A stretch of 64,000 bases of DNA from Eledone cirrhosa (lineage: Eukaryota): positions 269,390,001 through 269,454,000 of the forward strand of contig OZ024741.1 in assembly GCA_964016885.1 (NCBI GenBank), written 5' to 3'. The stretch's first letter is position 1; each line of letters opens with the position of its first letter. Under the pieces are notes generated by a model, which did no database searches, was not told where the DNA came from, and saw only the letters and a program-made list of their open reading frames with translations. Shown piece after piece: positions 1-63,452 of the stretch. The translations under genes were made by a program, and so were the position numbers.

Positions 1-34
1 ATACACATATATAAACATACATACACACACATAT

Positions 35-89
<55 letters not shown>

Positions 90-95
90 TAGATT

Positions 96-132
<37 letters not shown>

Positions 133-576
133 ATATATATCCACACACTCATACCACCATAAATACACATACAAACACCCACATGTATATATATATATAT
201 ATCTATATACACACACGTATATATATATACATATATATACATATATACATATACATACACACACATAACATAAAAAACAGACATGCACATACATATATAT
301 ATATATATTTTATTACTCTTATATATACATATATTATATATACATACACAACCTCACTTATACACATATACACATAAGTTATATTATAATAATAAAGAAT
401 AATATACATATATACATATACATATACATATACATATATATATATATATATATATACATACATACATACACATACATACATACACATAAATATATACATA
501 CATAAATACACACATACGAATAAAGACATATATTCACACATAGACACCTATATATATATATATATATATATATATC

Positions 577-625
<49 letters not shown>

Positions 626-3600
626 ACACACACACACACACACAGACACACATACTCACTCACATATATATATATATATACATATGTGTATGTGTGTGTG
701 CGCACATACACATATATACACACACACACACAAACACACACAAACACATACATATGCATACGTGCACACACACACACATATATCACATAGATACTAAGAT
801 AAACATATAAATAGAGAGACATACATATATATACACAACACACATGCACATACATACATACACGCACATACATATACATACATATATACACATATATATA
901 TATTCCTATATATACAAGCATACACATACATACACATATATACACATACATACACATATACATACAACACATTCACATACACATACATATATAATGCATA
1001 TATATACATATATATACATACATATGTATGTACAATCATATATACACACACAATCTTACATTCATATTTGCATGCTCATATATGTATTTTTATATTTAGA
1101 TATAAATACCCAAACCTATATAGACACCTACCTACATATATATTCATACATAGACGCTTACAAATACAGATGATAATAGTATGGGGGAAAGGGGGGGGTT
1201 GGAGAAGGGGATCAAAGTAAATATATGTTTCAAGAAACATATAATATTTTCCGTATCTTAATTCAATGTATGTTCTTACATATTTTCAGTGCTAGGAAAT
1301 ACGAAATCTATGCATCTCAAAATAAATAAGTATACCATTAATCATATGTTAACCAAACCAAAGATAGTCAACATATTGATTTCTAAGGTGTAAATTAGTT
1401 AGGTTTATAATATTTGAAGCAGAATTTTGAAGTCAAACAGTAGTAGATTATTAATTACATTATAACTAAATTAAAGTTAATAACGTTATGGTATCAATAT
1501 TAGGAGATGAATTTAGTAATAGGGAAAAGAAACCCAAATAAAAATAAAATAAAGTATTACATCGGTAGTAGCATATAAATTATATGTTAACTAAATTAAA
1601 AATTATATATTTATTTCAATAGTATACGTTAATTAGTATATGTTAATTAGGTATACAATACATAAAGCAGATATTGTATTTCATCAATAGCATAATATAA
1701 TTATATGCAAATAGAAATCAAAATTAATACGCATACATATACATATACATACACATACACATATACATACATATACACACATATATATATATATATATAT
1801 ATACATATATATACATATATACACATATATATATACATACAGATACACATACACAACACACACATATACATACACATATACATATACATATCTTTTTAAA
1901 AAATTGCACAGAATATATTAACTAGGTATATATCCAAAACACATCGCATTCTATGATTACATGACATTCTGCAATTCGTCTGTATAAGGATACTAATTTT
2001 AAGCAAATTAAAATTAAAATTTTTAGGTTGATTAAAACTAAAACCAAATAATAAATATATTTCCAAAATGTATATTAATTAGGTCTATAATACTAAAAAT
2101 TATTTCTCCGTCATTGGATACATGATATTATTTTGTTATATTTTATCTGTAAAAGAATTATAATAAAAGGTTTAAATAAATTAAAATTAATCTATAAATT
2201 AAATTACTAAGTATATATTAGTAATATTTAAAGGTTTTTCACAATTTATGATTACATAATATTTTCTCATCTGTAATAAAATATTAATTAAATTAAATTT
2301 ATAGGTTAACTAACATTTAAATTAAATTAATTTCTAGAATAATGTTATTAATTAGGTTTATAATATTTAAATGTTTTTTTTAGTTTATGATTACACGATA
2401 TAATTAATTCCTGTCGTTTATTTAATAAGATATCCTTAGACTTCATTATTTCAAATAGTTCTTGGGAACATAATCTACATTCCTTTCTATTATTTTGATA
2501 AGGGGTGGCTCTTTTGAGCACACTCCAGGTCAAATCATATTTTATATTCTTATTTTTATAACTATTGATTTTTTCTGCTAGAGATGTTGTATTAGCCAGT
2601 GCGGCATTTTTAAAACTATGCTTGTGGGTATTAAACCTTGTCTTAAAATTGTTAGAGGTAGCTCCTATATATGAGCAAATAGAATCTTTAGTTTTAACAT
2701 TACATTTATAGACTATGTTGTTAACAAGACAATTCCCTTTTAATGGGCAGTTTGTTTTGTTTCTACAGTTACATCCTTTCGTTAATTCTGTATTTGAGGA
2801 GATATTATTGTTAATTTGATGTACTGGTGGTATAGTTATGGTTTTCTTACATTTATATGCATTATATGCACTTATATTTTGTTTTATGTTATTTGTTGTA
2901 GAGTATGAGAATTTAACTGTAGACCTATTTAAGATTTGATGGTATTTGTGGTTTGGCGGGAAGTTTTTCTCAAGGATATAAAAAAATTTTTTAGCAATAT
3001 TATCCTTAACTTGTAAATTAAAAGGAGCATTATACCAAGTAACTAGTCTATTACGGTTTCTATGTTGTTTATTATTTTTATTATTTTTATAGGTTGTATC
3101 ATGATTTTTACTAGGAGGATTAATGTTAATGATCTCACCACAACTATTTTTAGTTATATTTGTAGATTTAGGTGTTTTATCTTTTTTATTAGGAGTTTTA
3201 TTATTAATATTTATTATAGTTGTATGATGGGTAGTTTTTTGAGGGTTACTATACTTTATATTAGAAGATTTAGTATTTTGGGGTATATTGTGGGTGGCAT
3301 TTAGGTGTGTACTTTTCATTTGGTGTTTGTTGGTAATATTATGCTGTATGCTTTCAGTATTTTTAGTAGAAGGTATATACTCTAATCTATTTTTGTGGCC
3401 ACTTCTATCTAGAGCTTCATTATAAAAGGTCGCATTTTTATCAAATACATCTTGGTTAGAAGAAAGGTTAGAAATTCTAAGTGATATATTATATGCAAGG
3501 TTTTTAAGGATAGATTTAGGGTGATTAGATTGTGAGTGTATGTAATGTAAGTTTTGGTTAGGTTTATGGTAAGGTTGGTATATACCCGTAGCTAAATCTA

Positions 3601-4343
3601 AAGTTATATCTAGGAAATTTACTACTTTACTTGTTTTTTCAAAAGTAATATTAAGATTATAATAGTCTTTAAGGAAAGTTCTAATATGCTTTTTGTTTTT
3701 TTCGATTTCTGAAAGGCTAAGGTTGTTAGAAAGAAGAAGACAGTCATCACGATATAAACCACCTTTGAGGTGGGGAAAAGAGGCATTTATGTTGAAAAGG
3801 AGAAAGAGGCCCACAAGATCAGTAATTTGGGCGGAATCGCTTGAACCCATAGTAATATCAAAAAGATTACTGTATGTGTTTCTGGTCCAGTATTCATTCT
3901 GAAATTCAATAAGTGTTAGTCTAGCATGTGTAATAATGTTAATGTCATCCGAAGTTAAATTAGATCTATTTTTAGCAAATATTAATGCTTTGTTCAGGAG
4001 TATAGGTGATATAGAAGAATAGTAATTATCTATATCAAATTGTAGGAAAGAAGCAGAAGATTTACACCTAATATTTTTAAACCAGTTAATTACCTGGGAG
4101 GTGTTTTCCCAGAGTGGTAAAATAACGTGTTTTCTTATTTGTGGGATGACTCTATCTAAAATTTTTTTGCTAATTATTCCAATATCTGATTTGGAGGGAC
4201 ATATAAGTCTAATAGAAGGATTAGAGTTAAAGTTAGATTTGTGATCTTTCAGGTTGAAGTGTGGTCTTTTCAATGCCAAAGGTTCAGTTCTATCTTCAAT
4301 GTTTAGTTTTTTTACTATGTTGTGTGTTTTGTTGTTGATGTTG
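1..4343 (-). mobile_element. Inverted 5'-truncated copy of Naiad family 1 (copy 1), runs off the window start
   Basis: Reverse complement of 10836 onward. ORF 2348-4279(-) is identical to copy 2 over the shared region. Confidence 0.93.
2348..4343 (-). pseudogene. 5'-truncated Naiad RT/GIY-YIG ORF
   Basis: Open frame lacking about the first 149 codons of the 813-aa ORF. Confidence 0.9.
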
Positions 4344-6245
4344 AAAGATCACAAATCTAACTTTAACTCTAATCCTTCTATTAGACTTATATGTCCCTCC
4401 AAATCAGATATTGGAATAATTAGCAAAAAAATTTTAGATAGAGTCATCCCACAAATAAGAAAACACGTTATTTTACCACTCTGGGAAAACACCTCCCAGG
4501 TAATTAACTGGTTTAAAAATATTAGGTGTAAATCTTCTGCTTCTTTCCTACAATTTGATATAGATAATTACTATTCTTCTATATCACCTATACTCCTGAA
4601 CAAAGCATTAATATTTGCTAAAAATAGATCTAATTTAACTTCGGATGACATTAACATTATTACACATGCTAGACTAACACTTATTGAATTTCAGAATGAA
4701 TACTGGACCAGAAACACATACAGTAATCTTTTTGATATTACTATGGGTTCAAGCGATTCCGCCCAAATTACTGATCTTGTGGGCCTCTTTCTCCTTTTCA
4801 ACATAAATGCCTCTTTTCCCCACCTCAAAGGTGGTTTATATCGTGATGACTGTCTTCTTCTTTCTAACAACCTTAGCCTTTCAGAAATCGAAAAAAACAA
4901 AAAGCATATTAGAACTTTCCTTAAAGACTATTATAATCTTAATATTACTTTTGAAAAAACAAGTAAAGTAGTAAATTTCCTAGATATAACTTTAGATTTA
5001 GCTACGGGTATATACCAACCTTACCATAAACCTAACCAAAACTTACATTACATACACTCACAATCTAATCACCCTAAATCTATCCTTAAAAACCTTGCAT
5101 ATAATATATCACTTAGAATTTCTAACCTTTCTTCTAACCAAGATGTATTTGATAAAAATGCGACCTTTTATAATGAAGCTCTAGATAGAAGTGGCCACAA
5201 AAATAGATTAGAGTATATACCTTCTACTAAAAATACTGAAAGCATACAGCATAATATTACCAACAAACACCAAATGAAAAGTACACACCTAAATGCCACC
5301 CACAATATACCCCAAAATACTAAATCTTCTAATATAAAGTATAGTAACCCTCAAAAAACTACCCATCATACAACTATAATAAATATTAATAATAAAACTC
5401 CTAATAAAAAAGATAAAACACCTAAATCTACAAATATAACTAAAAATAGTTGTGGTGAGATCATTAACATTAATCCTCCTAGTAAAAATCATGATACAAC
5501 CTATAAAAATAATAAAAATAATAAACAACATAGAAACCGTAATAGACTAGTTACTTGGTATAATGCTCCTTTTAATTTACAAGTTAAGGATAATATTGCT
5601 AAAAAATTTTTTTATATCCTTGAGAAAAACTTCCCGCCAAACCACAAATACCATCAAATCTTAAATAGGTCTACAGTTAAATTCTCATACTCTACAACAA
5701 ATAACATAAAACAAAATATAAGTGCATATAATGCATATAAATGTAAGAAAACCATAACTATACCACCAGTACATCAAATTAACAATAATATCTCCTCAAA
5801 TACAGAATTAACGAAAGGATGTAACTGTAGAAACAAAACAAACTGCCCATTAAAAGGGAATTGTCTTGTTAACAACATAGTCTATAAATGTAATGTTAAA
5901 ACTAAAGATTCTATTTGCTCATATATAGGAGCTACCTCTAACAATTTTAAGACAAGGTTTAATACCCACAAGCATAGTTTTAAAAATGCCGCACTGGCTA
6001 ATACAACATCTCTAGCAGAAAAAATCAATAGTTATAAAAATAAGAATATAAAATATGATTTGACCTGGAGTGTGCTCAAAAGAGCCACCCCTTATCAAAA
6101 TAATAGAAAGGAATGTAGATTATGTTCCCAAGAACTATTTGAAATAATGAAGTCTAAGGATATCTTATTAAATAAACGACAGGAATTAATTATATCGTGT
6201 AATCATAAACTAAAAAAAACATTTAAATATTATAAACCTAATTAA
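4338..6245 (+). pseudogene. 5'-truncated Naiad RT/GIY-YIG ORF with a junction-derived in-frame ATG
   Basis: atg-ttg-aaa-gat-cac spans the inversion junction. The remainder matches copy 3 except L versus R at 5548/12134. Confidence 0.85.
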
Positions 6246-7965
6246 TAACATTATTCTAGAAATTAATTTAATTTAAATGTTAGTTAACCTATAAATTTAA
6301 TTTAATTAATATTTTATTACAGATGAGAAAATATTATGTAATCATAAATTGTGAAAAACCTTTAAATATTACTAATATATACTTAGTAATTTAATTTATA
6401 GATTAATTTTAATTTATTTAAACCTTTTATTATAATTCTTTTACAGATAAAATATAACAAAATAATATCATGTATCCAATGACGGAGAAATAATTTTTAG
6501 TATTATAGACCTAATTAATATACATTTTGGAAATATATTTATTATTTGGTTTTGGTTTTAATCAACCTAAAAATTTTAATTTTAATTTGCTTAAAATTAG
6601 TATCCTTATACAGACGAATTGCAGAATGTCATGTAATCATAGAATGCGATGTGTTTTGGATATATACCTAGTTAATATATTCTGTGCAATTTTTTAAAAA
6701 GATATGTATATGTATATGTGTATGTATATGTGTGTGTTGTGTATGTGTATCTGTATGTATATATATATGTGTATATATGTATATATATGTATATATATAT
6801 ATATATATATATGTGTGTATATGTATGTATATGTGTATGTGTATGTATATGTATATGTATGCGTATTAATTTTGATTTCTATTTGCATATAATTATATTA
6901 TGCTATTGATGAAATACAATATCTGCTTTATGTATTGTATACCTAATTAACATATACTAATTAACGTATACTATTGAAATAAATATATAATTTTTAATTT
7001 AGTTAACATATAATTTATATGCTACTACCGATGTAATACTTTATTTTATTTTTATTTGGGTTTCTTTTCCCTATTACTAAATTCATCTCCTAATATTGAT
7101 ACCATAACGTTATTAACTTTAATTTAGTTATAATGTAATTAATAATCTACTACTGTTTGACTTCAAAATTCTGCTTCAAATATTATAAACCTAACTAATT
7201 TACACCTTAGAAATCAATATGTTGACTATCTTTGGTTTGGTTAACATATGATTAATGGTATACTTATTTATTTTGAGATGCATAGATTTCGTATTTCCTA
7301 GCACTGAAAATATGTAAGAACATACATTGAATTAAGATACGGAAAATATTATATGTTTCTTGAAACATATATTTACTTTGATCCCCTTCTCCAAACCCCC
7401 CCTTTCCCCCATACTATTATCATCTGTATTTGTAAGCGTCTATGTATGAATATATATGTAGGTAGGTGTCTATATAGGTTTGGGTATTTATATCTAAATA
7501 TAAAAATACATATATGAGCATGCAAATATGAATGTAAGATTGTGTGTGTATATATGATTGTACATACATATGTATGTATATATATGTATATATATGCATT
7601 ATATATGTATGTGTATGTGAATGTGTTGTATGTATATGTGTATGTATGTGTATATATGTGTATGTATGTGTATGCTTGTATATATAGGAATATATATATA
7701 TGTGTATATATGTATGTATATGTATGTGCGTGTATGTATGTATGTGCATGTGTGTTGTGTATATATATGTATGTCTCTCTATTTATATGTTTATCTTAGT
7801 ATCTATGTGATATATGTGTGTGTGTGTGCACGTATGCATATGTATGTGTTTGTGTGTGTTTGTGTGTGTGTGTGTATATATGTGTATGTGCGCACACACA
7901 CATACACATATATATATATATATATATGTGAGTGAGTATGTGTGTCTGTGTGTGTGTATGTGTGT

Positions 7966-8014
<49 letters not shown>

Positions 8015-8131
8015 GATATATATATATATATATATATATAGGTGTCTATGTGTGAATATATGTCTTTATTCGTATGTGTGTATTTATGTATGTATATATT
8101 TATGTGTATGTATGTATGTGTATGTATGTAT

Positions 8132-8163
<32 letters not shown>

Positions 8164-8454
8164 GTATATGTATATATGTATATTATTCTTTATTATTATA
8201 ATATAACTTATGTGTATATGTGTATAAGTGAGGTTGTGTATGTATATATAATATATGTATATATAAGAGTAATAAAATATATATATATATATGTATGTGC
8301 ATGTCTGTTTTTTATGTTATGTGTGTGTATGTATATGTATATATGTATATATATGTATATATATATATACGTGTGTGTATATAGATATATATATATATAT
8401 ACATGTGGGTGTTTGTATGTGTATTTATGGTGGTATGAGTGTGTGGATATATAT

Positions 8455-8491
<37 letters not shown>

Positions 8492-8497
8492 AATCTA

Positions 8498-8552
<55 letters not shown>

Positions 8553-8586
8553 ATATGTGTGTGTATGTATGTGTATATATGTGTAT

Positions 8587-8627
<41 letters not shown>

Positions 8628-8891
8628 TCTATTAATGCGTGTGTGTATGTATATACATATGCCTTTTAATTATTATTTTTATTTGTATGTCTGAGTTTGG
8701 TGAGGTTGTATTGTTTTTTATGTATATACACATATATGGAAGCGTATGTATTTATATATATGAGTATAAGTAGGTGCATATGTATGTATGATTATATATC
8801 TAATTCTATGTATGAAGGTACATCTATATATATATATATATACGTGTGTATGTAAGCTGTGTGTGTATGTATCTATATGTCTATGTGAGTG

Positions 8892-8928
<37 letters not shown>

Positions 8929-9023
8929 GTATATCGATGTGCGTATATGTATGTACGTGTATGTACATGTATGTGTATATGTATGTGTATGTATATTTAG
9001 ATGTATGTGTATGTATATGTATA

Positions 9024-9072
<49 letters not shown>

Positions 9073-10237
9073 ATATATATATATATATGGATATATATCT
9101 TTATTATCTATTTTTTATATATATGTGTATGTATGTATGTGTTGCGCGTGTGTGTGTGTATATATATATCTTTTTATATGTGTATGTGTATGTTCGTGTA
9201 AGTGTATGTGTGTGTATGACTGTATATGTATGTGTGTATGTGTGTATGCGTAAATATCTCTATGTGCGCGTACATGTATGTATGTGTATATATATCTGTA
9301 TGTGTATGTATATTATATTAAATTTATTATATTTTATTGTTTTATTTTTTTATTTTTCTTAATTTATAGATACATTTACATTAGGCAGTCTGCTCAGACA
9401 ATTGAATACTGACCCCTCCCCCCCCTCCCACCTAATTTCTGTATCTTGATCTTGAAATGTGTGTGCCAGTGTTTTATGTGAGTGACTTAATTTCTATGTG
9501 CTTATGATTTTATATCCACATATATAAATGTGAGTGGGGGAGTGTGTGTGTTTGTATGTTCGTGGTTATGTGTATATTTATGCATATACGCGCATGTATG
9601 TGTGATTATACTGATATGTGTGAGTATGAAAAAATATATTTATATGCTTGACTCCATAAGTATCAATGCGCATCTTATCAGCGCATTAAGCTTACAGAGA
9701 TATTAACCTTGAAATTTTGTGTTTGCATCCATCTTTTTAATATGCGTATACAAATTATACACACATTTTTGTAAAATATGTGTAAGGATTTTACATGTAT
9801 ATACACACACCGAACTGCTTTTAACCCTTTGTGTTTTCATTGGTCAATTTTGAACTGATATTTTGAATTGTTGTTATTATCAATAAATATACTTCATTAT
9901 TTCTGAAGACGGCGTATATATGTGTTAGGTATGTATATTTAATCTTGATAATTTGTATAATTTTGTATAATTTTGTACATAGATCTGTCGAATATGCATA
10001 CCAATTATAACACATATATACCCTAGAAACGATCGTTAAATAATGAATTTTTTTATTTAATATAAGGAATTGTTTATTCATTATTTGTTTAATATTTTAT
10101 CTTGACTCTGTATACCGTTTATCTTTCACCGAAAGTGGATTTTCATTACATCTCTTCTTTCCATGATATCCGGAATACATTGAGTTCTTCATACGGATTG
10201 GACACTACCGTAAACTCTTGGTAGATTTATCTACATA
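4342..10237 (+). mobile_element. 5'-truncated tandem copy of Naiad family 1 (copy 2)
   Basis: Near-identical to 10928-16832 (offset 6586-6595). Starts at tgaaagatcac within the RT N-terminal region. Confidence 0.93.
9893..10047 (+). ncRNA. Type I hammerhead ribozyme-like motif with extended stem II
   Basis: Stem I ttcattattt/aaataatgaa (10 bp), CTGAAGA at 9903, 116-nt hairpin, GAAA at 10026, palindromic stem III ACGATCGT, predicted GUU cleavage after 10037. The base of stem II is non-canonical. Confidence 0.8.
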
Positions 10238-10389
10238 ATTTTGCTCCTATTTTCACGGAAATATTCGTATTTTTGTACTGTATGTGTGTATTAATTTTAT
10301 ATTTATGTATAAACATATATATATGTATGATTTTGTAAACCCATATACATTTAGTTGAGCTCTTTCAATTGTCCATCATCCATATCACA

Positions 10390-12831
10390 ATGGAAAAACA
10401 ATATTTAGGAACCTCCTTAAAAAACATACCAATACCTTCTAAGGACGACTTCTTACTCCTTATGATTCAGAAAACTAATAATTTTATCAGAAGGGTTAGA
10501 TGGAGAGCCTACCACTTCGATAGAAAATCTAAACAAGCAGATCGGAAATATATGTATGATTTCAATACTTACAAGAATCCACCACACAACTTTTTACTTG
10601 AAGACTTCGAGAAAGACCTTTTTAATTTAATTAAACACCTCAAATTTAAAAAGTATAAATCCGTCTTTCAAAAGGACCTTGATTCTACCCTATTGGACCT
10701 AAAAAAGTCTAAAAAAATCCATGTCCACTCGGACAAAACTGGTAACTTGTATCATATGGATATTGAACATTATAATGAGTTCATATATAAAGAACTCAGA
10801 AAAAATTATAAAAAATCTAATAATGTGTCACTCACCAACATCAACAACAAAACACACAACATAGTAAAAAAACTAAACATTGAAGATAGAACTGAACCTT
10901 TGGCATTGAAAAGACCACACTTCAACCTGAAAGATCACAAATCTAACTTTAACTCTAATCCTTCTATTAGACTTATATGTCCCTCCAAATCAGATATTGG
11001 AATAATTAGCAAAAAAATTTTAGATAGAGTCATCCCACAAATAAGAAAACACGTTATTTTACCACTCTGGGAAAACACCTCCCAGGTAATTAACTGGTTT
11101 AAAAATATTAGGTGTAAATCTTCTGCTTCTTTCCTACAATTTGATATAGATAATTACTATTCTTCTATATCACCTATACTCCTGAACAAAGCATTAATAT
11201 TTGCTAAAAATAGATCTAATTTAACTTCGGATGACATTAACATTATTACACATGCTAGACTAACACTTATTGAATTTCAGAATGAATACTGGACCAGAAA
11301 CACATACAGTAATCTTTTTGATATTACTATGGGTTCAAGCGATTCCGCCCAAATTACTGATCTTGTGGGCCTCTTTCTCCTTTTCAACATAAATGCCTCT
11401 TTTCCCCACCTCAAAGGTGGTTTATATCGTGATGACTGTCTTCTTCTTTCTAACAACCTTAGCCTTTCAGAAATCGAAAAAAACAAAAAGCATATTAGAA
11501 CTTTCCTTAAAGACTATTATAATCTTAATATTACTTTTGAAAAAACAAGTAAAGTAGTAAATTTCCTAGATATAACTTTAGATTTAGCTACGGGTATATA
11601 CCAACCTTACCATAAACCTAACCAAAACTTACATTACATACACTCACAATCTAATCACCCTAAATCTATCCTTAAAAACCTTGCATATAATATATCACTT
11701 AGAATTTCTAACCTTTCTTCTAACCAAGATGTATTTGATAAAAATGCGACCTTTTATAATGAAGCTCTAGATAGAAGTGGCCACAAAAATAGATTAGAGT
11801 ATATACCTTCTACTAAAAATACTGAAAGCATACAGCATAATATTACCAACAAACACCAAATGAAAAGTACACACCTAAATGCCACCCACAATATACCCCA
11901 AAATACTAAATCTTCTAATATAAAGTATAGTAACCCTCAAAAAACTACCCATCATACAACTATAATAAATATTAATAATAAAACTCCTAATAAAAAAGAT
12001 AAAACACCTAAATCTACAAATATAACTAAAAATAGTTGTGGTGAGATCATTAACATTAATCCTCCTAGTAAAAATCATGATACAACCTATAAAAATAATA
12101 AAAATAATAAACAACATAGAAACCGTAATAGACGAGTTACTTGGTATAATGCTCCTTTTAATTTACAAGTTAAGGATAATATTGCTAAAAAATTTTTTTA
12201 TATCCTTGAGAAAAACTTCCCGCCAAACCACAAATACCATCAAATCTTAAATAGGTCTACAGTTAAATTCTCATACTCTACAACAAATAACATAAAACAA
12301 AATATAAGTGCATATAATGCATATAAATGTAAGAAAACCATAACTATACCACCAGTACATCAAATTAACAATAATATCTCCTCAAATACAGAATTAACGA
12401 AAGGATGTAACTGTAGAAACAAAACAAACTGCCCATTAAAAGGGAATTGTCTTGTTAACAACATAGTCTATAAATGTAATGTTAAAACTAAAGATTCTAT
12501 TTGCTCATATATAGGAGCTACCTCTAACAATTTTAAGACAAGGTTTAATACCCACAAGCATAGTTTTAAAAATGCCGCACTGGCTAATACAACATCTCTA
12601 GCAGAAAAAATCAATAGTTATAAAAATAAGAATATAAAATATGATTTGACCTGGAGTGTGCTCAAAAGAGCCACCCCTTATCAAAATAATAGAAAGGAAT
12701 GTAGATTATGTTCCCAAGAACTATTTGAAATAATGAAGTCTAAGGATATCTTATTAAATAAACGACAGGAATTAATTATATCGTGTAATCATAAACTAAA
12801 AAAAACATTTAAATATTATAAACCTAATTAA
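10390..12831 (+). CDS. Intact Penelope-like element (Naiad clade) reverse transcriptase + C-terminal GIY-YIG endonuclease, 813 aa
   Basis: First ATG is at 10390 (the track starts at an upstream TTG). RT motifs FDIDNYYSSI, DITMGSSDSAQ, GLYRDD, FLDITLDL, YHKPN/SNHP; linker CNCRNKTNCPLKGNC (CxCx5Cx5C, Naiad-type); GIY-YIG IVYKC..YIGAT..FKTRFNTH..CRLC..E..LLNKR..CNH. No stops or frameshifts. Confidence 0.95.
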   Translation: MEKQYLGTSLKNIPIPSKDDFLLLMIQKTNNFIRRVRWRAYHFDRKSKQADRKYMYDFNTYKNPPHNFLLEDFEKDLFNLIKHLKFKKYKSVFQKDLDSTLLDLKKSKKIHVHSDKTGNLYHMDIEHYNEFIYKELRKNYKKSNNVSLTNINNKTHNIVKKLNIEDRTEPLALKRPHFNLKDHKSNFNSNPSIRLICPSKSDIGIISKKILDRVIPQIRKHVILPLWENTSQVINWFKNIRCKSSASFLQFDIDNYYSSISPILLNKALIFAKNRSNLTSDDINIITHARLTLIEFQNEYWTRNTYSNLFDITMGSSDSAQITDLVGLFLLFNINASFPHLKGGLYRDDCLLLSNNLSLSEIEKNKKHIRTFLKDYYNLNITFEKTSKVVNFLDITLDLATGIYQPYHKPNQNLHYIHSQSNHPKSILKNLAYNISLRISNLSSNQDVFDKNATFYNEALDRSGHKNRLEYIPSTKNTESIQHNITNKHQMKSTHLNATHNIPQNTKSSNIKYSNPQKTTHHTTIININNKTPNKKDKTPKSTNITKNSCGEIININPPSKNHDTTYKNNKNNKQHRNRNRRVTWYNAPFNLQVKDNIAKKFFYILEKNFPPNHKYHQILNRSTVKFSYSTTNNIKQNISAYNAYKCKKTITIPPVHQINNNISSNTELTKGCNCRNKTNCPLKGNCLVNNIVYKCNVKTKDSICSYIGATSNNFKTRFNTHKHSFKNAALANTTSLAEKINSYKNKNIKYDLTWSVLKRATPYQNNRKECRLCSQELFEIMKSKDILLNKRQELIISCNHKLKKTFKYYKPN

Positions 12832-14029
12832 TAACATTATTCTAGAAATTAATTTAATTTAAATGTTAGTTAACCTATAAATTTAATTTAATTAATATTT
12901 TATTACAGATGAGAAAATATTATGTAATCATAAATTGTGAAAAACCTTTAAATATTACTAATATATACTTAGTAATTTAATTTATAGATTAATTTTAATT
13001 TATTTAAACCTTTTATTATAATTCTTTTACAGATAAAATATAACAAAATAATATCATGTATCCAATGACGGAGAAATAATTTTTAGTATTATAGACCTAA
13101 TTAATATACATTTTGGAAATATATTTATTATTTGGTTTTAGTTTTAATCAACCTAAAAATTTTAATTTTAATTTGCTTAAAATTAGTATCCTTATACAGA
13201 CGAATTGCAGAATGTCATGTAATCATAGAATGCGATGTGTTTTGGATATATACCTAGTTAATATATTCTGTGCAATTTTTTAAAAAGATATGTATATGTA
13301 TATGTGTATGTATATGTGTGTGTTGTGTATGTGTATCTGTATGTATATATATATGTGTATATATGTATATATATGTATATATATATATATATATATATGT
13401 GTGTATATGTATGTATATGTGTATGTGTATGTATATGTATATGTATGCGTATTAATTTTGATTTCTATTTGCATATAATTATATTATGCTATTGATGAAA
13501 TACAATATCTGCTTTATGTATTGTATACCTAATTAACATATACTAATTAACGTATACTATTGAAATAAATATATAATTTTTAATTTAGTTAACATATAAT
13601 TTATATGCTACTACCGATGTAATACTTTATTTTATTTTTATTTGGGTTTCTTTTCCCTATTACTAAATTCATCTCCTAATATTGATACCATAACGTTATT
13701 AACTTTAATTTAGTTATAATGTAATTAATAATCTACTACTGTTTGACTTCAAAATTCTGCTTCAAATATTATAAACCTAACTAATTTACACCTTAGAAAT
13801 CAATATGTTGACTATCTTTGGTTTGGTTAACATATGATTAATGGTATACTTATTTATTTTGAGATGCATAGATTTCGTATTTCCTAGCACTGAAAATATG
13901 TAAGAACATACATTGAATTAAGATACGGAAAATATTATATGTTTCTTGAAACATATATTTACTTTGATCCCCTTCTCCAAACCCCCCCTTTCCCCCATAC
14001 TATTATCATCTGTATTTGTAAGCGTCTAT

Positions 14030-14551
14030 GTATGAATATATATGTAGGTAGGTGTCTATATAGGTTTGGGTATTTATATCTAAATATAAAAATACATATA
14101 TGAGCATGCAAATATGAATGTAAGATTGTGTGTGTATATATGATTGTACATACATATGTATGTATATATATGTATATATATGCATTATATATGTATGTGT
14201 ATGTGAATGTGTTGTATGTATATGTGTATGTATGTGTATATATGTGTATGTATGTGTATGCTTGTATATATAGGAATATATATATATGTGTATATATGTA
14301 TGTATATGTATGTGCGTGTATGTATGTATGTGCATGTGTGTTGTGTATATATATGTATGTCTCTCTATTTATATGTTTATCTTAGTATCTATGTGATATA
14401 TGTGTGTGTGTGTGCACGTATGCATATGTATGTGTTTGTGTGTGTTTGTGTGTGTGTGTGTATATATGTGTATGTGCGCACACACACATACACATATATA
14501 TATATATATATATGTGAGTGAGTATGTGTGTCTGTGTGTGTGTGTGTGTGT

Positions 14552-14630
<79 letters not shown>

Positions 14631-15038
14631 TGTCTATGTGTGAATATATGTCTTTATTCGTATGTGTGTATTTATGTATGTATATATTTATGTGTATGTA
14701 TGTATGTGTATGTATGTATGTATATATATATATATATATATATGTATATGTATATGTATATATGTATATTATTCTTTATTATTATAATATAACTTATGTG
14801 TATATGTGTATAAGTGAGGTTGTGTATGTATATATAATATATGTATATATAAGAGTAATAAAATATATATATATATATGTATGTGCATGTCTGTTTTTTA
14901 TGTTATGTGTGTGTATGTATATGTATATATGTATATATATGTATATATATATACGTGTGTGTATATAGATATATATATATATATACATGTGGGTGTTTGT
15001 ATGTGTATTTATGGTGGTATGAGTGTGTGGATATATAT

Positions 15039-15081
<43 letters not shown>

Positions 15082-15087
15082 AATCTA

Positions 15088-15146
<59 letters not shown>

Positions 15147-15180
15147 ATATGTGTGTGTATGTATGTTTATATATGTGTAT

Positions 15181-15223
<43 letters not shown>

Positions 15224-15487
15224 TCTATTAATGCGTGTGTGTATGTATATACATATGCCTTTTAATTATTATTTTTATTTGTATGTCTGAGTTTGGTGAG
15301 GTTGTATTGTTTTTTATGTATATACACATATATGGAAGCGTATGTATTTATATATATGAGTATAAGTAGGTGCATATGTATGTATGATTATATATCTAAT
15401 TCTATGTATGAAGGTACATCTATATATATATATATATACGTGTGTATGTAAGCTGTGTGTGTATGTATCTATATGTCTATGTGAGTG

Positions 15488-15524
<37 letters not shown>

Positions 15525-15619
15525 GTATATCGATGTGCGTATATGTATGTACGTGTATGTACATGTATGTGTATATGTATGTGTATGTATATTTAGATGT
15601 ATGTGTATGTATATGTATA

Positions 15620-15668
<49 letters not shown>

Positions 15669-15905
15669 ATATATATATATATATGGATATATATCTTTAT
15701 TATCTATTTTTTATATATATGTGTATGTATGTATGTGTTGCGCGTGTGTGTGTGTATATATATATCTTTTTATATGTGTATGTGTATGTTCGTGTAAGTG
15801 TATGTGTGTGTATGACTGTATATGTATGTGTGTATGTGTGTATGCGTAAATATCTCTATGTGCGCGTACATGTATGTATGTGTATATATATCTGTATGTG
15901 TATGT
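14030..15905 (+). repeat. Compound TA/TG microsatellite inside the Naiad 3' UTR
   Basis: The same interrupted pattern occurs at ~7445-9310 and inverted at 1-1150. Confidence 0.9.
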
Positions 15906-16487
15906 ATATTATATTAAATTTATTATATTTTATTGTTTTATTTTTTTATTTTTCTTAATTTATAGATACATTTACATTAGGCAGTCTGCTCAGACAATTG
16001 AATACTGACCCCTCCCCCCCTCCCACCTAATTTCTGTATCTTGATCTTGAAATGTGTGTGCCAGTGTTTTATGTGAGTGACTTAATTTCTATGTGCTTAT
16101 GATTTTATATCCACATATATAAATGTGAGTGGGGGAGTGTGTGTGTTTGTATGTTCGTGGTTATGTGTATATTTATGCATATACGCGCATGTATGTGTGA
16201 TTATACTGATATGTGTGAGTATGAAAAAATATATTTATATGCTTGACTCCATAAGTATCAATGCGCATCTTATCAGCGCATTAAGCTTACAGAGATATTA
16301 ACCTTGAAATTTTGTGTTTGCATCCATCTTTTTAATATGCGTATACAAATTATACACACATTTTTGTAAAATATGTGTAAGGATTTTACATGTATATACA
16401 CACACCGAACTGCTTTTAACCCTTTGTGTTTTCATTGGTCAATTTTGAACTGATATTTTGAATTGTTGTTATTATCAATAAATATAC

Positions 16488-16642
16488 TTCATTATTTCTG
16501 AAGACGGCGTATATATGTGTTAGGTATGTATATTTAATCTTGATAATTTGTATAATTTTGTATAATTTTGTACATAGATCTGTCGAATATGCATACCAAT
16601 TATAACACATATATACCCTAGAAACGATCGTTAAATAATGAA
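16488..16642 (+). ncRNA. Hammerhead ribozyme-like motif (second copy)
   Basis: Same sequence as 9893-10047, 6595 bp downstream. Confidence 0.8.
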
Positions 16643-16826
16643 TTTTTTTATTTAATATAAGGAATTGTTTATTCATTATTTGTTTAATATTTTATCTTGA
16701 CTCTGTATACCGTTTATCTTTCACCGAAAGTGGATTTTCATTACATCTCTTCTTTCCATGATATCCGGAATACATTGAGTTCTTCATACGGATTGGACAC
16801 TACCGTAAACTCTTGGTAGATTTATC

Positions 16827-16903
<77 letters not shown>

Positions 16904-20019: not shown

Positions 20020-20665
20020 TAAAGTTCATTCCTTGAATTTAGGCAACCGCTGTTACTTAATCTTCTCAGGATATTGATCCTTTCTTCAATATGGTCCCTC
20101 CACCTTATCACTCAACGTAAACACTAATGTAGGATAAATCTGTTTAGCTCTCTTAGATAGACACTTCCCTATAGGTCACAAATACCGCTCCATCTTTAAC
20201 AGACACAGGGTGAAACTAGGATACTCTTGTCCTAATAATATGAAGGCCCACATTACCAACAGCCTTAAGAGCAGCACCCTCACCAGGATGCTCTTGCCGA
20301 AAGCCTGAAGCTTGTCCGCTTCAACAACAATGCAACACACCCGCTGTATTTTACGAAGCTGTGGTCACTTCTAACCGACCAAGTCAACAACAAGAGGTTA
20401 AGTCCTATGTAGGTGTGGTGGAGTGCCGGTTTAAGGAACGCTTCCTGAACCATCAGTCGACCTTCAGATACCCGGACAAATGATCGTCCACGAAACTCGC
20501 GAGCCACATATGGTCCCTCAAAGACACAGGCGTAGATTACTCCATCCAATGGAAAGCTATTACTAATTCTTTAGCCATACGCAAGGGGAATCCGTCTTGT
20601 GGGCTGTGCGTTGAAGAAGATTACGTATTAGCGCTTGCCTAAATTCAAGGGATGAACTTTATTCA
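20020..20665 (+). pseudogene. Decayed Naiad-type GIY-YIG fragment with an inverted copy of its 3' end upstream
   Basis: YSCPNNMKAHI.., ..YEAVV..KSYVG..FKERFLNH remnants; taaagttcattccttgaatttaggcaa is inverted at ~20635-20662. Confidence 0.6.
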
Positions 20666-26488: not shown

Positions 26489-27693
26489 CACTGGCCTATA
26501 TTACCCTTACCATAAAAACAATGAGAACCTAAATTATGTTAACTTTAAATCTAACCATCCTACTAATATCAAGAATGCTATAGTTAGTAATATTGGAAAA
26601 AGAATATCTAACCTATCTTCTAATAAAAACATCTTTGATGCTAACGCCAATTACTATAATAACGCGCTTTCTAAAGCCGGCTATCCTGATAAAATTAAAT
26701 ATAGTAAAGAAACAAATTCTAGAAGAAATTACAGTAGAATAATTAATCATGATCATTCCAATAACTTTAATAAAAGACCTAGATACAAAAACATAATCTG
26801 GTATAATGCTCCTTTCTCCATCTCTATTAATAACAACATTCCTAAATTATTCTTTAGTGCCTTAGATAAATGCTTCCCTCCCTCACATATCTATAGTAAA
26901 ATATTTAACAAACACACTATAACATTTTCCTATTCTACATCCTCCAACATTTCCAACATTATCTCTAAACACAACAATAAAATACTAAATACTAAATCTC
27001 TTCCTTCCAACACTGAATATCATAATAATAGTACTCCCGACGTCATTGTAAACCCTAGGCTAATTTCTACAAACCCAAATACAACGTCAAACACAACTTC
27101 GCTAAATGTTCTTAATCTCATTCTAAATCAAGAAACTATTATTCCTATCGCAAACAACTTCTCCAATCCAATTCCTTCTATAGATAACACTAGGTCACTC
27201 ATTAATAATCTCTCTAATCGCAATTGCAATTGCCCTATTAAAAATAAATGTCCTCTCAACAACCATTGTCTTGATAAAAACTTAATTTACGAATGTAAAG
27301 TTATAACTGACACCAATTCCTTCACCTATTTTGGCTCCACTTCCACCTCTTTTAAAGCTCGTCTTTATAACCATCATTCGTCTTTTAAATACAAACTTAA
27401 AAGAACCAACACGGCTCTCTCAGAACTCATATGGTCCTTGGAAGACAAAAATATTAAATATAGCATCTTTTGGAAGAAGGTTTCTTCTGCGTCTCTATAC
27501 TTGAACAGTTCTCTATCCAAAATTTGCAATCTCTGTCTAAATGAAAAATTTACCATTATTTCCAATTTAGATTCTATAATAAATAGACGCACTGACTTGT
27601 TTTCTATCTGCTTGCATAAATTCCATAAAACATTTCACAAAGTATACAGCTAATATTCAATTCTTTATCAATTTAGAATCTTTTTCTCAAAGG

Positions 27694-39191: not shown

Positions 39192-39336
39192 TGTGTATAT
39201 ATATATATTTATTAGTTAAGCAAAACAAGACCACAAATTTCACAAGGAAAACATTATTAAAAGATTGTCAACATCTTTTAGTTTGATGTAAGGAATGTAG
39301 AGAATAATAATAACAATATTAATAATAATAATGTCC

Positions 39337-39455
39337 GTTTACAATTGTTTCGCTACTCCATATAATATTTCTGAATCAAATGACTATATATCATTATTGA
39401 TCTGGTTCAGTTGAAAATAATTAACATAATTAAAGATAGAGCGGCTCATCGGAAC
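39337..39455 (-). ncRNA. Hammerhead-like motif with a CCGAUGA core and 94-nt stem II region
   Basis: gtt-CCGATGA-gccgctc..gagtagc-GAAA-caattg-TA-aac; partial homologue at 43596-43705(+). Confidence 0.65.
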
Positions 39456-41436
39456 TTCAAAGGAATATAAATTAAAATAAGGAAAGAATGTTATATAAAT
39501 GTAATGTTCCATATTTTGGTATTTCACTATGGTGTCCTGGGTGTATCAATTGTCTGCCATAATCAAGCAGTATTCTTCTGTCGAAGCATTGTGTGAGATC
39601 TGCCTATGGGTAACAAGATGGCCGCCAATGGACATATTTACCTTACTAATTAGAGGCTGGTTTCAGGGGAAGTAACTCTTCGAGGGATTAGAAATTGTGG
39701 GTAGTTTATAGTTAAGTGCTAATTTTTTTAATTTTTTAATTGAAAGACAATGTAAGGGAGGTAACTTATCTAAGCTAGTTATAGCTATTTAACTTATTAG
39801 CTACAAGTAAAAATGGGGCAAGATGACTATGTTGGGTCAAATATTCTGTTGGCGAAGGAATTAGCCCTTCGATGTTGACAGCTAATAGTTACCTCCGTTC
39901 TATCGTTAATCGGTAGAAGTTGTGATAGAGTTATGTAATATGCTTCGGTAATACAGAAATCACAAGATTTTCTTCGTCCATTGAACCGTTGGGCCCTAGC
40001 TAAGATATTCCATGTAAGTGAGTGTTCAATGTTGGTTAATTTAAGGTTTTTAATGAGCCTAGCTAGAGATGTCGAACATCTGTTGTTAGGGTCTCGGAAG
40101 GAAAAAGAATGCGCGTTATAGCGTACCTTAAAAGGGTTAGAGGTAGACCCGATATAGGAGCTGGTATTCGAAGCAGTTTTAACCGTGCACCTATTAAAAG
40201 CTTCTTCTCTATGCTATCTAAACATTTCCCCACCAACCATAGATATTATAAACTCTTTAATAAAAGTAACATTAAAATCTCATTCTCCACAACACCTAAC
40301 CTAGCTAGCCACATCGATTCAGTAACCATCATAAACTAAGACTGTATAACTCCCACACCGCGGTACCACCACCCCTATCAAATACACCACGCCACTACAC
40401 CAATACTTACTCTAGTAGCACCCCTCCCCTCATCTAATCCTTCTAACACTGACCAACCGCTTAGGTTAAACTACCCTACTCTCACTAACTGCAGAAGTAA
40501 CTGCAACTGCCGTTACCCTAATGCATGCCCACTAAATGGGCACTGCCTGACACCCAACATAGTCTATAGGTGCACGGTTAAAACGGCTTCGAATACCTGC
40601 TCCTATATCGGGTCTACCTCTAACCCTTTTAAGGTACGCTATAACGCGCACTCTTTTTCCTTCCGAGATTCTAACAAGATATTCGACATCTCTAGCTAGG
40701 CTCATTAAAAACCTTAAATTAACCAACATTGAACACTCACTTACATGGGATATCTTAGCTAGGGCCCTACCGTTCAATGGACGAAGAAAATCTTGTGATC
40801 TCTGTATTACCGAAGCAAATTACATAATTCTATCACGACCTCTACCGATTAACGATAGAACGGAGGTAACTATTAGCTGTCAATATCGAAGGGCTAATTC
40901 CTTCGCTAACAGAATATTTGACCCAACTTAGTCATCTAGCCCCATTTTTACTTGTAGCTAATAAGTTAAATAGCTATAACTAACTTAGATAATTATAAGT
41001 TACCTCCCCTACATTGTCTCTCAAGTAAAAAATTAAAAAATTAGCACTTAACTATAAACTCCCACAATTTCTAATCTCTCGAGGAGTTACTTCCCCTGAA
41101 ACCAGCCTCTAATTAGTAAGGTAAATATGTCCATTGGCGGCCATCTTGTTAACCATAGGCAGATCTCACACAATGCAGCCTCGACAGAAGAATACTGCTT
41201 GATTATGGCAGACAATTGATACACCCAGAACACCATAGTGAAATACCAAAATATGGAACATTACATTTATATAACATTCTTTCCTTATTTTAATTTATAT
41301 TCCTTTGAATATAAGCCGCTCTATCTTTACCTATGTTAATTATTTTCAACTGAACCAGATCAATAATGATATATAGTCATTTGATCCAGAAATATTATAT
41401 GGAGTAGCGAAACAATTGTAAACGGACATTATTATT

Positions 41437-41620
41437 GGTGGATTGACAGTATCGGTAGAGGGTCAGACACCATGCTTTCCAGCATAGTTACGTCCCTCTA
41501 CGATCTGAGTTCAAATCCCGCCGAGGTTGACTTTGCTTTCATCCTTACGGGGTCGATAAAATAAAGTACCAGTAATGCACTGGGTAATTGCTGGCCTTGT
41601 GCCTAAAGTAGAAACAATTA
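41437..41620 (+). mobile_element. SINE family A inserted in the Naiad family 3 right arm
   Basis: Absent from the equivalent (ATT)n site in the left arm (~39330). Confidence 0.85.
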
Positions 41621-41904
41621 TTATTAATATTATTATTATTATTCTCTACATTCCTTACATCAAACTAAAATATGTTGACAATCTGTTAATAATGTCTTCC
41701 TTGTGAAATTTGTGGTCTTGTTTTCCTTAACTAATAAATATTTCCAGCTCTGTGCACCTAACTTCTGCATGAACCCACCCACCTAGCTGCTTTCCACTGC
41801 ATATTGCACATTGAGCACATGCCTTTACGCTTTGGCTTCTAACTAATTCACCAATCTCTCCTCTCCTATCTCCATCTCTCTCTTTAAGATTGGTTACTCT
41901 TGAA

Positions 41905-41945
<41 letters not shown>

Positions 41946-41981
41946 CGAGGGCAATCCCACAGTAACTCCGCGTTACACTCC

Positions 41982-42017
<36 letters not shown>

Positions 42018-42067
42018 AAGATGAATATAAAAAGAAAGTTCTTTTTTTAAAAAAAGGAATTTATTAG

Positions 42068-42185
42068 GTATTGACATATGTTTCTGTAACAGACGGAATA
42101 CCTATGTATCGCTGCTTGCGTAATCATATAATGTTAGCAGGTATTCGATAGAAAATGTATAATCAGTTGTCACTTCTTCAGAGAT
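42068..42185 (-). ncRNA. Degenerate hammerhead-like motif with a 90-nt stem II region
   Basis: CTGAAGA-a-gtgaca..tgttac-a-GAAA-catatg-TC; stem I pairing is poor. Confidence 0.5.
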
Positions 42186-42489
42186 TTTGGATAAATTGGA
42201 TAAAATCAGAAAAATTGAAGTATTTATATTAGTTGTAATAGAGGAAGAAGAGAGGGGGTAGTATATGACAGATGGTAATTCAATTTACTGCTAAACAAGT
42301 ATATAAAGGGTTTCTAATGAGAATACAATGAGTAAATGGTTTATTTTATCTAAATAAGAATTTTTGGGAGTGCCTATTTTAATCTATACTTGACCAATTG
42401 AACAATGGACAGGGCTGGTCATTTGGTGTAGTAGTAACCAGTCACCCTTGTATTATCATGCGACACTCTGTCTAGCCACTAATATCCCC

Positions 42490-43797
42490 AAACGCTTCTT
42501 CTCTATCCTATCCCTCCCCCAACCATAGATATTACAAACTCTTTAATAAAAATAACATTAAAATCTCATTCTCCACAACACCTAACCTAGCTAGCCACAT
42601 CGCGTTCAGTACCCATCATAAGCTAAGACAGTACAACTCCCACATCGCGTTACCACCACCCCTATCAAATACACCACGCCACTACACCAATAATTACTCT
42701 AGTAGCACACCTCCCCCATCTAATCCTTCTAGCACGGACCTACCGCTTAGGTTAAACAACCCTACTCTCACTAACCGCAGAAGCAACTGCAACTGCCGTT
42801 ACCCCAGTGCATGCCCATTAAATGGACACTGCCTGACACCCAACATAGTCTATAGGTGCACGGTTGAGACTGCTTCGAATATCAGCTCTTATATCGGGTC
42901 TACCTCTAACCCTTTTAAGGTACGCTATAACGCGCACTCTTTTTCCTTCCGAGACCCTAGCAACAGATGTTCGACATCGCTAGCTAGGCTCATTAAAAAC
43001 CTTAAATTAAACAACGTTCAAAACTCGTTAAAATAGGATATCGTGGCTAGGGCCCTACCGTTCAATGGACGAAGAAAATCTTGTGATTTCCGTATTACGG
43101 AAGCATATTACATAACTCTATCACGACCTCTACCGATTAACGATAGAACGGAGGTAACCATTAGCTGTCAACATCGAAGGGCTAATTCCTTCGCCAATAG
43201 AATCCTTGACCCAACTTAGTCATGTAGCCCCATTTTTACTTGTAGCTAATAAGTTAAATTGCTATGAACAACTCGATAATTATAAGTTACCTCCCCTACA
43301 TTGTCTCTCAATTAAAAACATTTAAAAATTAGCACTTAACTATAAACACCCACAATTTCTAATCTCTCGAGAAGTTACTTCCCCTGAAACCACCCTCTAA
43401 TTAGTAAGGTAAATATGCCCTTTGGCAGCCATCTTGTTACCCATAGGCAGATCTCACACAATGCAGCCTCGACAGAAGAATACTGCTTGATTATGGCTGA
43501 CAACTGATGCAACCAAGACACCATAGTAAAAACCAATATATGGAACAGTATAGTATGTAACATTATCCCATTATTTTATTTTATATTCCTTTGAAGTTCC
43601 GATGAGCCACTCTGTTTTTTAAATATGTTAATTATTTTCAACTGAACCAGATAAATTATGATATATAGTCATCTGAGTCATATATGGAGTAGCGAAACAA
43701 TTGTATACATTCCTTACATCAAACTAAAATATGTTGACAATCTTTTAATAATGTCTTCCTTGTGAAATTTGTGGTCTTGTTTTGCTTAACTAATGAA
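42490..43797 (+). mobile_element. Third 5'-truncated copy of Naiad family 3
   Basis: Homologous to 40196-41740 without the SINE. Confidence 0.85.
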
Positions 43798-45061
43798 TAT
43801 ATGTATATATACATATATACACACACATATATATATACACACACATATACATATACACACACATACATGCACACATATATACACACACACATATATATAT
43901 ACACATACATATATATACATCCCATATATATACTACACATATACACACACACAAATATATATATACACACATATACCATATATATATATACATACACCAT
44001 ACAAATATATACATATTATACAAACACACACATATATATATATATATACACACATACACAAATATATACGTATATATATACATACATATATCTTATACAC
44101 ACATACACATACACACTAAACATACATATATATTATACATATCTTGTACATACACATATATACATATATATATAGATCTCACATACACACAAATATATAT
44201 TTTCTACATACATACATGTTATATACACACTATATATATCCTATTCATATACCACACATATATCCCACACATATCATATACATCCTATATATACACTATA
44301 CATATCATACATACATATTATATATATCTCCCACATATATACACACACATATATACACACACACACATAAATATATACATACACTCACACACACACATAT
44401 ATATATATATCCCATACACACATATATATATACACACACATATATACATACACACACATATACACACACATACATATACATACATATAAACATATATATA
44501 TATTCAACACATTTTATATACACATACATACATACACATATATATTCCATATATACACATTTTATACCTCTTTCATATCTATATTTTTTTTACATATACA
44601 TATATATATACTAAATATATATACATATAAATGTATTATGCACATATTCATACATACATATACACACACACACATACATATATATACACATATCTATCTC
44701 ACACATACGCACGTGCATACATACACACATATATAAATATACACACACACATATGTACACATACACATACACATGTACACATATATCTGTATACCTACAG
44801 GTACAAATATTAAAAAAACACATCTATACATACATATATGTATAGATGTATACACATCTACTCAAGTGTTTAAGTTCATATATACATTGGTGTGGAGAAG
44901 GGGAAATTAATGAAATGTTATTGTACCTCTGAGGGATGTTCTTCTCTTCAGCGATCGAATGTTTGAAAGTACGGGTGTCATCAACTATTTTTCTTTTTCA
45001 AAATGATATATTTTTTAAAGAAAAGAGAGGGGGGAGAATCCCGTTGCTTGAAGATGGAATA

Positions 45062-62657: not shown

Positions 62658-63452
62658 AAATTAAATAAATAAATAAAATTAAAATTAAAATTTTAAAATT
62701 AAAATTTAAATTTAAATTTAAATAAATAAATAAATAAATAAATAAATGGAGTCAAGTAAGTAAATAAATAAAATTAGATAACATGAAATGAAATAAAATA
62801 AAATGAAATAAAGTAAATTGAGATAAGATATATATTTTTTTTAAATATATCTCTTGAATATATCAGGGGCCCACGAAGGCACTAAGTGTCACAGTTATGT
62901 GTATCACTTGACCAATTTTTTAAAATATATTTCTTGAAAACATCAGGGGCCCACGTAGGCACTAAGTGTCACAGTCACCAGTATCACTTGACCATTGCAA
63001 GGCAATGGAGGCGTCACAGGTTGGGCAGTCTCGAAAGTTCACTCGAAAGTCATGGGTGTGCATTCACACAGTTGAGCGGTGGGGTAATCACAAACCGGTT
63101 CACACACGTGCAGGAGTCCAATGGTCAGAGAGAGGTGCATCGAAGGAGGTAGAAGAATTCACGTGCATTAGCAAGCGAGGTGAGGCGGGTTAAAGCAAGC
63201 AGACACAGTTGTAGCGCATACAAAATATATATAAAAAGACAGAAGATATATAAAAAATAGCTTCAAGAGCCATTAAGTCACCGCATTGGGACATCACAAG
63301 ATTGTACACATCAATATGTTCAGCACGTATATGCACGTATACACACCACATGCATATGCAGAGACGGTATACATATATATATATATATATATTTTTATAT
63401 ATACAGACACATATAACCACCTACACCCATACACATATAAATGTATACACGG

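Follow-up and report, generated by a model that had tools for sequence, protein, structure and literature searches.

A Hydra-type Penelope-like element of Eledone cirrhosa starts its arms at two fixed sites and forms multi-unit arrays, possibly by way of a hammerhead-cut RNA circle

The role of the hammerhead ribozyme in Penelope-like elements (PLEs), and the way in which these elements form tandem copies, have been open since 2014, when Cervera and de la Pena proposed hammerhead cleavage of PLE tandems, ligation to circles and reverse transcription over more than one unit (PMC4209133). Small circles of hammerhead retrozymes exist in animals (PMC7229834), and an in vitro study of Poseidon PAc from Anolis carolinensis favoured uncut linear RNA as the template (Frangieh et al. 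2024, PMC11167929). PLE insertions have also been described as having two inverted ends, only one of which carries a "tail", and self-priming was proposed for them (PMC3846280). We analyse a window of 64,000 nucleotides (nt) from Eledone cirrhosa (GCA_964016885.1, contig OZ024741.1, positions 269,390,001 to 269,454,000), which holds most of one insertion of a PLE of the Hydra type, and relate it to the rest of the genome. The genome shows the clade, fixed start sites, the pairing of unlike starts, read-through of the hammerhead cut, arrays of up to ~4 units and one haplotype per insertion; it settles the anatomy and the twin-start rule, and does not decide the template. An earlier note on the window, made from its letters, had proposed a young Naiad element copied round a circle. 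That circle is the 2014 model of cleavage, ligation and over-unit reverse transcription, and the idea is therefore not new.

With neighbouring genome DNA included, the insertion totals 18.3 kb and consists of a 0.88-unit inverted arm joined head-to-head, with a 2-nt overlap, to a 1.90-unit tandem (Table 1). Self-comparison of the window aligns 4342-10237 directly with 10928-16832 at 99.59% identity, with 5 mismatches and 7 gap openings, and places an inverted copy of ~99.5% identity at 1-4343; few substitutions, together with microsatellite length changes, separate the three passes. No seam is seen at junction 10237/10238 of the tandem (4342-16832), whose unit (10238-16832) we number from u1 = 10238, so that the hammerhead cut falls after u6395. 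The 3′ end at 16832 lies 200 nt beyond the predicted cut (after 16632) and abuts (TA)33. In all of this (three near-identical copies, a seamless tandem of 6,595-bp units, a 3′ end past the cut on a TA tract) the earlier note is borne out. It had the layout of 1.9 units plus an inverted arm right as well, but not the extent of 1 to 16832: the inverted arm continues ~1.47 kb upstream of the window start and ends 18-19 nt beyond the hammerhead cut, on (TA)n(GA)n. With ends 18-19 nt versus 200 nt past the cut, the two arms of this locus use different starts.

Table 1. Coordinates of the insertion and its parts within the window
Feature	Position	Strand	Basis
Inverted arm, 0.88 unit, 5′-truncated near u600, outer end at minor start C	1..4343	-	self-comparison and neighbouring DNA
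Upstream pass, 0.89 unit, 5′-truncated at u691	4342..10237	+	self-comparison
Upstream type I hammerhead motif, predicted cut after 10037	9893..10047	+	inspection; family conservation
Terminal full unit, 6,595 bp	10238..16832	+	sequence inspection
813-aa open reading frame (ORF): RWR, DKT, reverse transcriptase core YRDD, CxCX5C linker, C-terminal GIY-YIG-type endonuclease with CxxC and CxH, without CCHH	10390..12831	+	
Unusually long 3′ non-coding region, with degenerate TA/TG microsatellite zone at ~14155-15909	12832..16487	+	
Terminal type I hammerhead motif with a stem I of 10 bp, a long stem II and a stem III of 2 bp whose loop is palindromic (predicted dimer type); cut predicted after 16632	16488..16642	+	
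62 nt separating the cut and start site B (3,807 ends in the genome match B)	16633..16694	+	
Second copy of stem I 5′ strand, predicted to pair with the 10 nt that follow the cut as a decoy hairpin	16672..16681	+	
138-nt PLE "tail" from start site B to start site A (A matched by 6,690 ends in the genome)	16695..16832	+	
(TA)n target tract at A end	16833..16895	.	sequence inspection

By its motifs, the element belongs to the Hydra clade; its insertion here is young. Members of this clade (e.g. Hydra-1_Obim, Penelope-n_HM) are diagnosed by a C-terminal endonuclease, RW[K/R], DKT, a CxCX5C linker, and CxxC and CxH around conserved E and N, without CCHH (Craig et al. 2021, PMC8557442), and the present element shares their domain order, motifs and (TA)n target. 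A Pfam search of the 813-aa ORF, which is uninterrupted, gave no significant match; the order of reverse transcriptase (RT) followed by GIY-YIG domain therefore rests on motifs and homologs. Among 7,999 candidates scored, 118 homologs were found at E <= 1e-20, the best being 40% identical over the whole length. An alignment of the ORF with nine of the 118 displays RW[R/K], DK[T/S] (DKT in eight, DKS in one), YRDD, CxCX5C and C-terminal CxxC and CxH, without CCHH. In the ORF the linker reads CNCRNKTNC, and the endonuclease-type motifs (CRLC for CxxC, CNH for CxH) lie within the last ~150 residues, after the RT. Like the Hydra clade, the element has (TA)n insertion and a canonical hammerhead motif, on comparison by eye with the published list, and its cleavage-site base is U, as is often so in that clade (PMC8557442). 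Published Hydra reference proteins were likewise compared by eye, and the clade call is motif-based.

The Naiad label does not survive this comparison. Naiads have an N-terminal endonuclease, a CxC linker, DKA and CCHH, and lack a canonical hammerhead (PMC8557442); here the endonuclease follows the RT, the motif is DKT rather than DKA, CCHH is absent, the linker is CxCX5C and a type I hammerhead motif is conserved. The likeness to Naiads extends to (TA)n preference, partial tandems and inverted 5′ copies. Neptune and Nematis, diagnosed by a CX2-5CxxC linker and CCHH, were rejected by motif comparison, as the ORF shows neither. Against the Hydra clade as described in PMC8557442, the family stands out by its unit length (6.0-7.2 kb versus generally <3 kb, a tendency and not diagnostic), by a tail of 138 nt versus 30-40 nt in other PLEs, by a hammerhead unlike the listed Hydra-1_oBim motif and with a stem II arm of ~115 nt, and by its at least 10,500 arms and arrays of up to ~4 units. 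It is an unusually long new member of a known clade, and its worth lies in serving as a test system. The earlier note had argued from the intact ORF that the family may be active. The open 813-aa frame is confirmed; recent activity under selection is indicated by the ORF being open in 43 of the 59 passes that have its start, and by polymorphism ratios (70 synonymous to 36 non-synonymous for polymorphisms common to several arrays, 54 to 81 for singletons).

Genome-wide, exact patterns placed 6,690 ends at u6595 (site A) and 3,807 at u6457 (site B), and gave 302 read-through junctions; the last figure is an undercount, since 12 of 31 crossing passes had variant junctions in a hand tally. The two fixed starts thus lie 200 and 62 nt beyond the cut, and copies longer than one unit are a habit of the family. 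All 27 resolved two-armed insertions have unlike outer ends, A with B in 26 and A with C at the present locus; like pairs were not seen, and independent choice of start would yield unlike pairs in ~46%. The same private alleles occur in both arms of the arrays checked (W, E, H). From these observations we infer one RNA primed twice by an asymmetric complex; if one RNA serves both arms, the trailing RT would have to displace the leading complementary DNA (cDNA), and the RNA would have to outlast a pass. The pairing sharpens the known one-sided tail into a rule that every mechanism has to explain. In Poseidon PAc, two internal RT starts 3′ of the cut likewise define the tail, and both strands of an AT-rich target are likewise cut and extended (PMC11167929). 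The systems differ in the position of the starts, in the 5′ untranslated region of the present element versus inside the ORF of Poseidon, and in that the Poseidon work found no strand difference in start site in vitro, versus 27 of 27 unlike pairs here. Within the window, a T-run followed by A just past stem I (16643-16651) is site-B-like in the lineage of the locus, and the inverted arm starts there.

We also considered whether the flanking TA tracts had gained repeats templated by the element, in the manner of telomerase, and rejected this, as interruption types do not track end type: ACA interrupts the tract at 18/75 A ends and 9/51 B ends, and TT types at 10/75 and 10/51, respectively. In insertions E, I and L176 (and, by eye, G and L181) both TA tracts carry the same interruption many times, strand-mirrored (AAA/TTT, ACA/TGT), which looks like a reiterated target site; L112 is a counter-example. 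Many two-armed mini-insertions of ~300-550 bp were seen among L168-L197, 15 of 30 being joined via the inverted repeat of 10 bp that forms hammerhead stem I. Each of 46 inversion junctions was seen once.

Multi-unit arrays are not peculiar to this locus. Eleven of 85 junction-crossing arms (drawn from the first 100 listed junctions, with one short fragment left out) span at least two junctions, and three of these span three. Array sizes of 3.1, 3.5, 3.8 and ~4.0 units occur in subfamilies up to ~7% apart, confirming that other copies also exceed one unit; array E has arms of 2.94 and 2.90 units in a single insertion. At ~3.5 units, array D has a 5′ piece from another subfamily (L070; ~0.9 kb joined non-colinearly), possibly a template switch. 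Locus J consists of two single-junction arms and is no tandem. Divergence is 0.02-0.22% within arrays of at least three passes, the nearest sampled array is 0.21-0.86% off, and the family spans ~7%. Ten arrays with at least three passes carry 47 alleles that all passes of an array share and that none of the other 33 arrays has, besides 28 singletons and 6 partly shared alleles; these counts omit pass +4 of D and pass +3 of K, which were misaligned, and K then has fewer than three. Fixed array-private alleles suggest that tandems are repeatedly rebuilt from one unit; by linear inheritance alone, they could only become shorter. One caveat is that the array sample is sparse, and a bottleneck at every insertion is unproven. 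At the present locus, one allele occurs in each of the three passes, and the other copies of its subfamily lack it throughout the genome. No same-subfamily copy shares two tested alleles, and no parent or daughter of the locus was found; a third allele is common to three other insertions, the longest of which is a sister lineage and not a daughter. The locus junction, taken with 31 letters on both sides, had no piece bridging it among the matches listed for four contig sets of unrecorded kind, which cannot show RNA ends.

Among 9,216 arms that cover the region, 34 pattern matches begin exactly at the cut, versus 7 at a control position 12 nt upstream. Microhomology explains 15 of the 34, which are inversions at the repeat of stem I; setting these aside leaves 19 versus 7 (P = 0.014). 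Scaling the 34 triple-mismatch matches by an assumed 0.34 gives ~100 arms, or roughly 1%, so that an estimated 99%, roughly, read through the first cut site. This upholds the argument that a linear monomer running from cut to cut cannot template such ends, and with so few arms beginning there, the RNA is nearly always intact at the cut. One unit further upstream, 78 of the 85 junction-crossing arms reach the upstream hammerhead, 7 ending before its cut; 72 of the 78 go past, 57 of them by >870 nt, and 11 cross a second junction. The 85 arms show no pile-up at a candidate transcription start and no other sharp 5′ peak, many of the long extents ending at the 2.8-3.5 kb edge of the fetched DNA. 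As a separate observation, 38 of 70 consecutive passes covering u651 end in the next 650 nt (u1-650, window 10238-10890), spread without a peak in a hand tally; this is several times the rate of loss of long arms elsewhere, and may reflect a roadblock near the start of the element or selection against complete copies.

The earlier note placed two hammerheads one unit apart, and inspection supports the motif, with predicted cuts after 10037 and 16632; the terminal one reads CUGAAGA at 16498-16504, then GAAAC-GAUC-GUU. A core-motif pattern gave 107 distinct contexts; 99 of them have a completely paired stem I, 106 retain the palindromic loop, and none has G as the cleavage base. The predicted dimer-type type I fold is that of metazoan non-LTR retrozymes, whose circles are shown for non-coding RNAs of 170-400 nt (PMC7229834); the present element, in contrast, codes for protein, and some of its templates are apparently linear.

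Our leading explanation, held tentatively and with less than even confidence, is that the 1.9-unit arm most likely arose by copying a re-ligated, hammerhead-cut 6.6-kb RNA circle twice. Both hammerheads of a tandem transcript would cut as a dimer, and the monomer ends would be ligated. The element protein would then prime from both target strands of a (TA)n tract, at two internal RNA sites past the cut, on one RNA that serves both arms and survives a pass while the trailing RT displaces the leading cDNA. One unit copied twice round the circle would give the 1.9-unit arm, and the two cDNAs would join head-to-head through microhomology. In a minority of templates, cleavage at the 5′ hammerhead alone would have left a linear RNA, and DNA-level reshuffling would have come later in older arrays. 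Two points put the circle slightly ahead of an uncut multimer: a template 5′ end is missing from most long arms, and the dimer-type hammerhead is conserved. The 72 of 78 arms that pass the upstream hammerhead without a promoter pile-up suit a circle too. In genomic DNA the junction of a circle would look the same as read-through of a tandem, since it leaves no seam. We consider it rather unlikely, though worth stating, that the fuller scheme holds, in which a coding PLE spreads by twin rolling-circle reverse transcription, with a ligated 6.6-kb monomer, an asymmetric RT dimer priming both strands 138 nt apart on the same circle, and head-to-head insertions of up to ~six units (~39 kb). In a literature search that did not cover subscription papers, neither a circle formed by a coding PLE nor a comparable genome-wide test came up. 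With at least 10,500 young arms, many intact ORFs and resolved multi-unit arrays, the family should be able to discriminate between circle and linear models. PLE reverse transcriptases are the sister group of telomerase, and repeated use of one template, if true, would bear on that link.

Several observations weigh against the circle. Six of the 78 hammerhead-reaching arms, two from one insertion, stop 0-13 nt past the cut, and four stops within 5 nt of it (0.2 expected, P ~5e-5) are not what a closed circle predicts. Such stops suggest that cleavage occurs in vivo and that a minority of templates are linear, having been cut at the 5′ hammerhead alone; the alternative is that RNA structure stops the RT there. 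At the locus, u1897 is T, a derived allele, in the upstream pass and the inverted arm and not in the terminal pass (other T copies, among those listed, belong to distant subfamilies), and both arms end near u600-690; together this is what a non-uniform linear dimer would give. Passes within an insertion mostly relate to each other as a star, their private alleles being fixed, but arrays B and M depart from this: sharing is nested among inner passes, with an excess of private changes in the terminal pass (in M, one rare allele is common to three inner passes and five changes are private to the terminal one), and one pass of array F differs at 3 clustered sites. Long upstream passes are enriched in multi-junction arms (10/13 versus 25/74, Fisher P ~0.005), as unequal exchange predicts, yet variable processivity predicts this too. 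The hammerhead family is absent among the 150 Rfam matches listed for the window (44 lower ones lie outside that list), which are microRNA- or snoRNA-like and lie on TA/TG repeats. Single-strand folding recovers stem II (z = -6.1) and not the full hammerhead fold, and the predicted decoy hairpin would compete with stem I. Finally, Poseidon starts internally on uncut linear RNA in vitro, and its hammerhead mutants insert normally (PMC11167929).

The nested sharing in older arrays points to DNA-level exchange after insertion. Polishing errors could mimic some of the pattern, and the polarity of most mid-unit sites in array B is unreadable from relatives. Post-insertion exchange would let a linear model regenerate tandems without a circle, and this gives weight to the strongest rival, which we place close behind the circle. 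It holds that a tandem master is transcribed through mostly inactive hammerheads into an uncut linear multimer, that reverse transcription starts internally at A and B, and that tandems are rebuilt over generations by unequal crossing-over between passes. The Poseidon results on internal initiation and dispensable cleavage (PMC11167929), the 5′ ends at the cut, the shared u1897 allele and similar 5′ end points of the locus arms, the nesting in B and M and the predicted decoy hairpin all speak for such a multimer. However, it predicts a pile-up at the transcription start, absent from the 85 arms (partly censored), and sister arrays with common unit-to-unit differences, where only a homopolymer-edge site recurred among the sites listed for 34 arrays. 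It is also hard to square with the lack of a recurrent inversion junction among the 46 and of the u1897 allele in any other same-subfamily copy among those listed, and it requires rare masters of 3-5 units in each subfamily. As to the rolling-circle proposal of the earlier note, over-unit copies are indeed a family habit, but a circle is not the sole fit, since linear internal initiation, cut-ended templates and post-insertion exchange fit as well.

It is also conceivable, though distinctly unlikely, that re-entry occurs without a covalent circle: at the 5′ end of a terminally redundant linear RNA, the RT would use homology to jump to the 3′ repeat, either of that RNA or of a sister molecule, and continue, so producing seamless multimers. 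This would account for one haplotype per insertion, for the lack of a hard length limit and for the chimeric 5′ piece of array D, and linear cut-ended templates are indicated. Yet more stops and scars would be expected at the RNA 5′ end than the 72 of 78 arms that cross the cut without stopping allow, and differences between terminal and inner passes extend beyond the redundant region. Very improbable is an origin of the extra 0.9 unit only after insertion, by DNA duplication or conversion. Inter-pass exchange is visible in several arrays, but the upstream pass, 5′-truncated and fused to the inverted arm without a gap, looks like most other 5′ ends made by RT, and unequal exchange adds whole units and cannot make such an end. 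An assembly artefact (a collapsed or duplicated repeat) is scarcely credible: the copies are near-identical, two passes of array E hold many 1-nt insertions resembling residual errors and read polishing could homogenise passes or revert alleles, but every pass has its own variants, the same architecture recurs at many loci in distinct subfamilies, and both flanks resolve into TA tracts and different downstream sequence.

The window holds a few further features. A 648-codon chimeric ORF (4299-6245, plus strand) begins in the inverted arm and enters the truncated upstream pass. Upstream of the terminal hammerhead, AG follows a long pyrimidine tract at ~15925-15985, an arrangement that resembles a splice acceptor. 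More distant Hydra-like fragments, including an inverted/direct cluster, lie at 39192-43813, 20105-20618, 26490-26702 and 63441-63998. The minus strand at 45062-45568 encodes a GIY-YIG domain (Pfam E 7.6e-7) that has additional cysteine motifs and probably derives from a different PLE clade.

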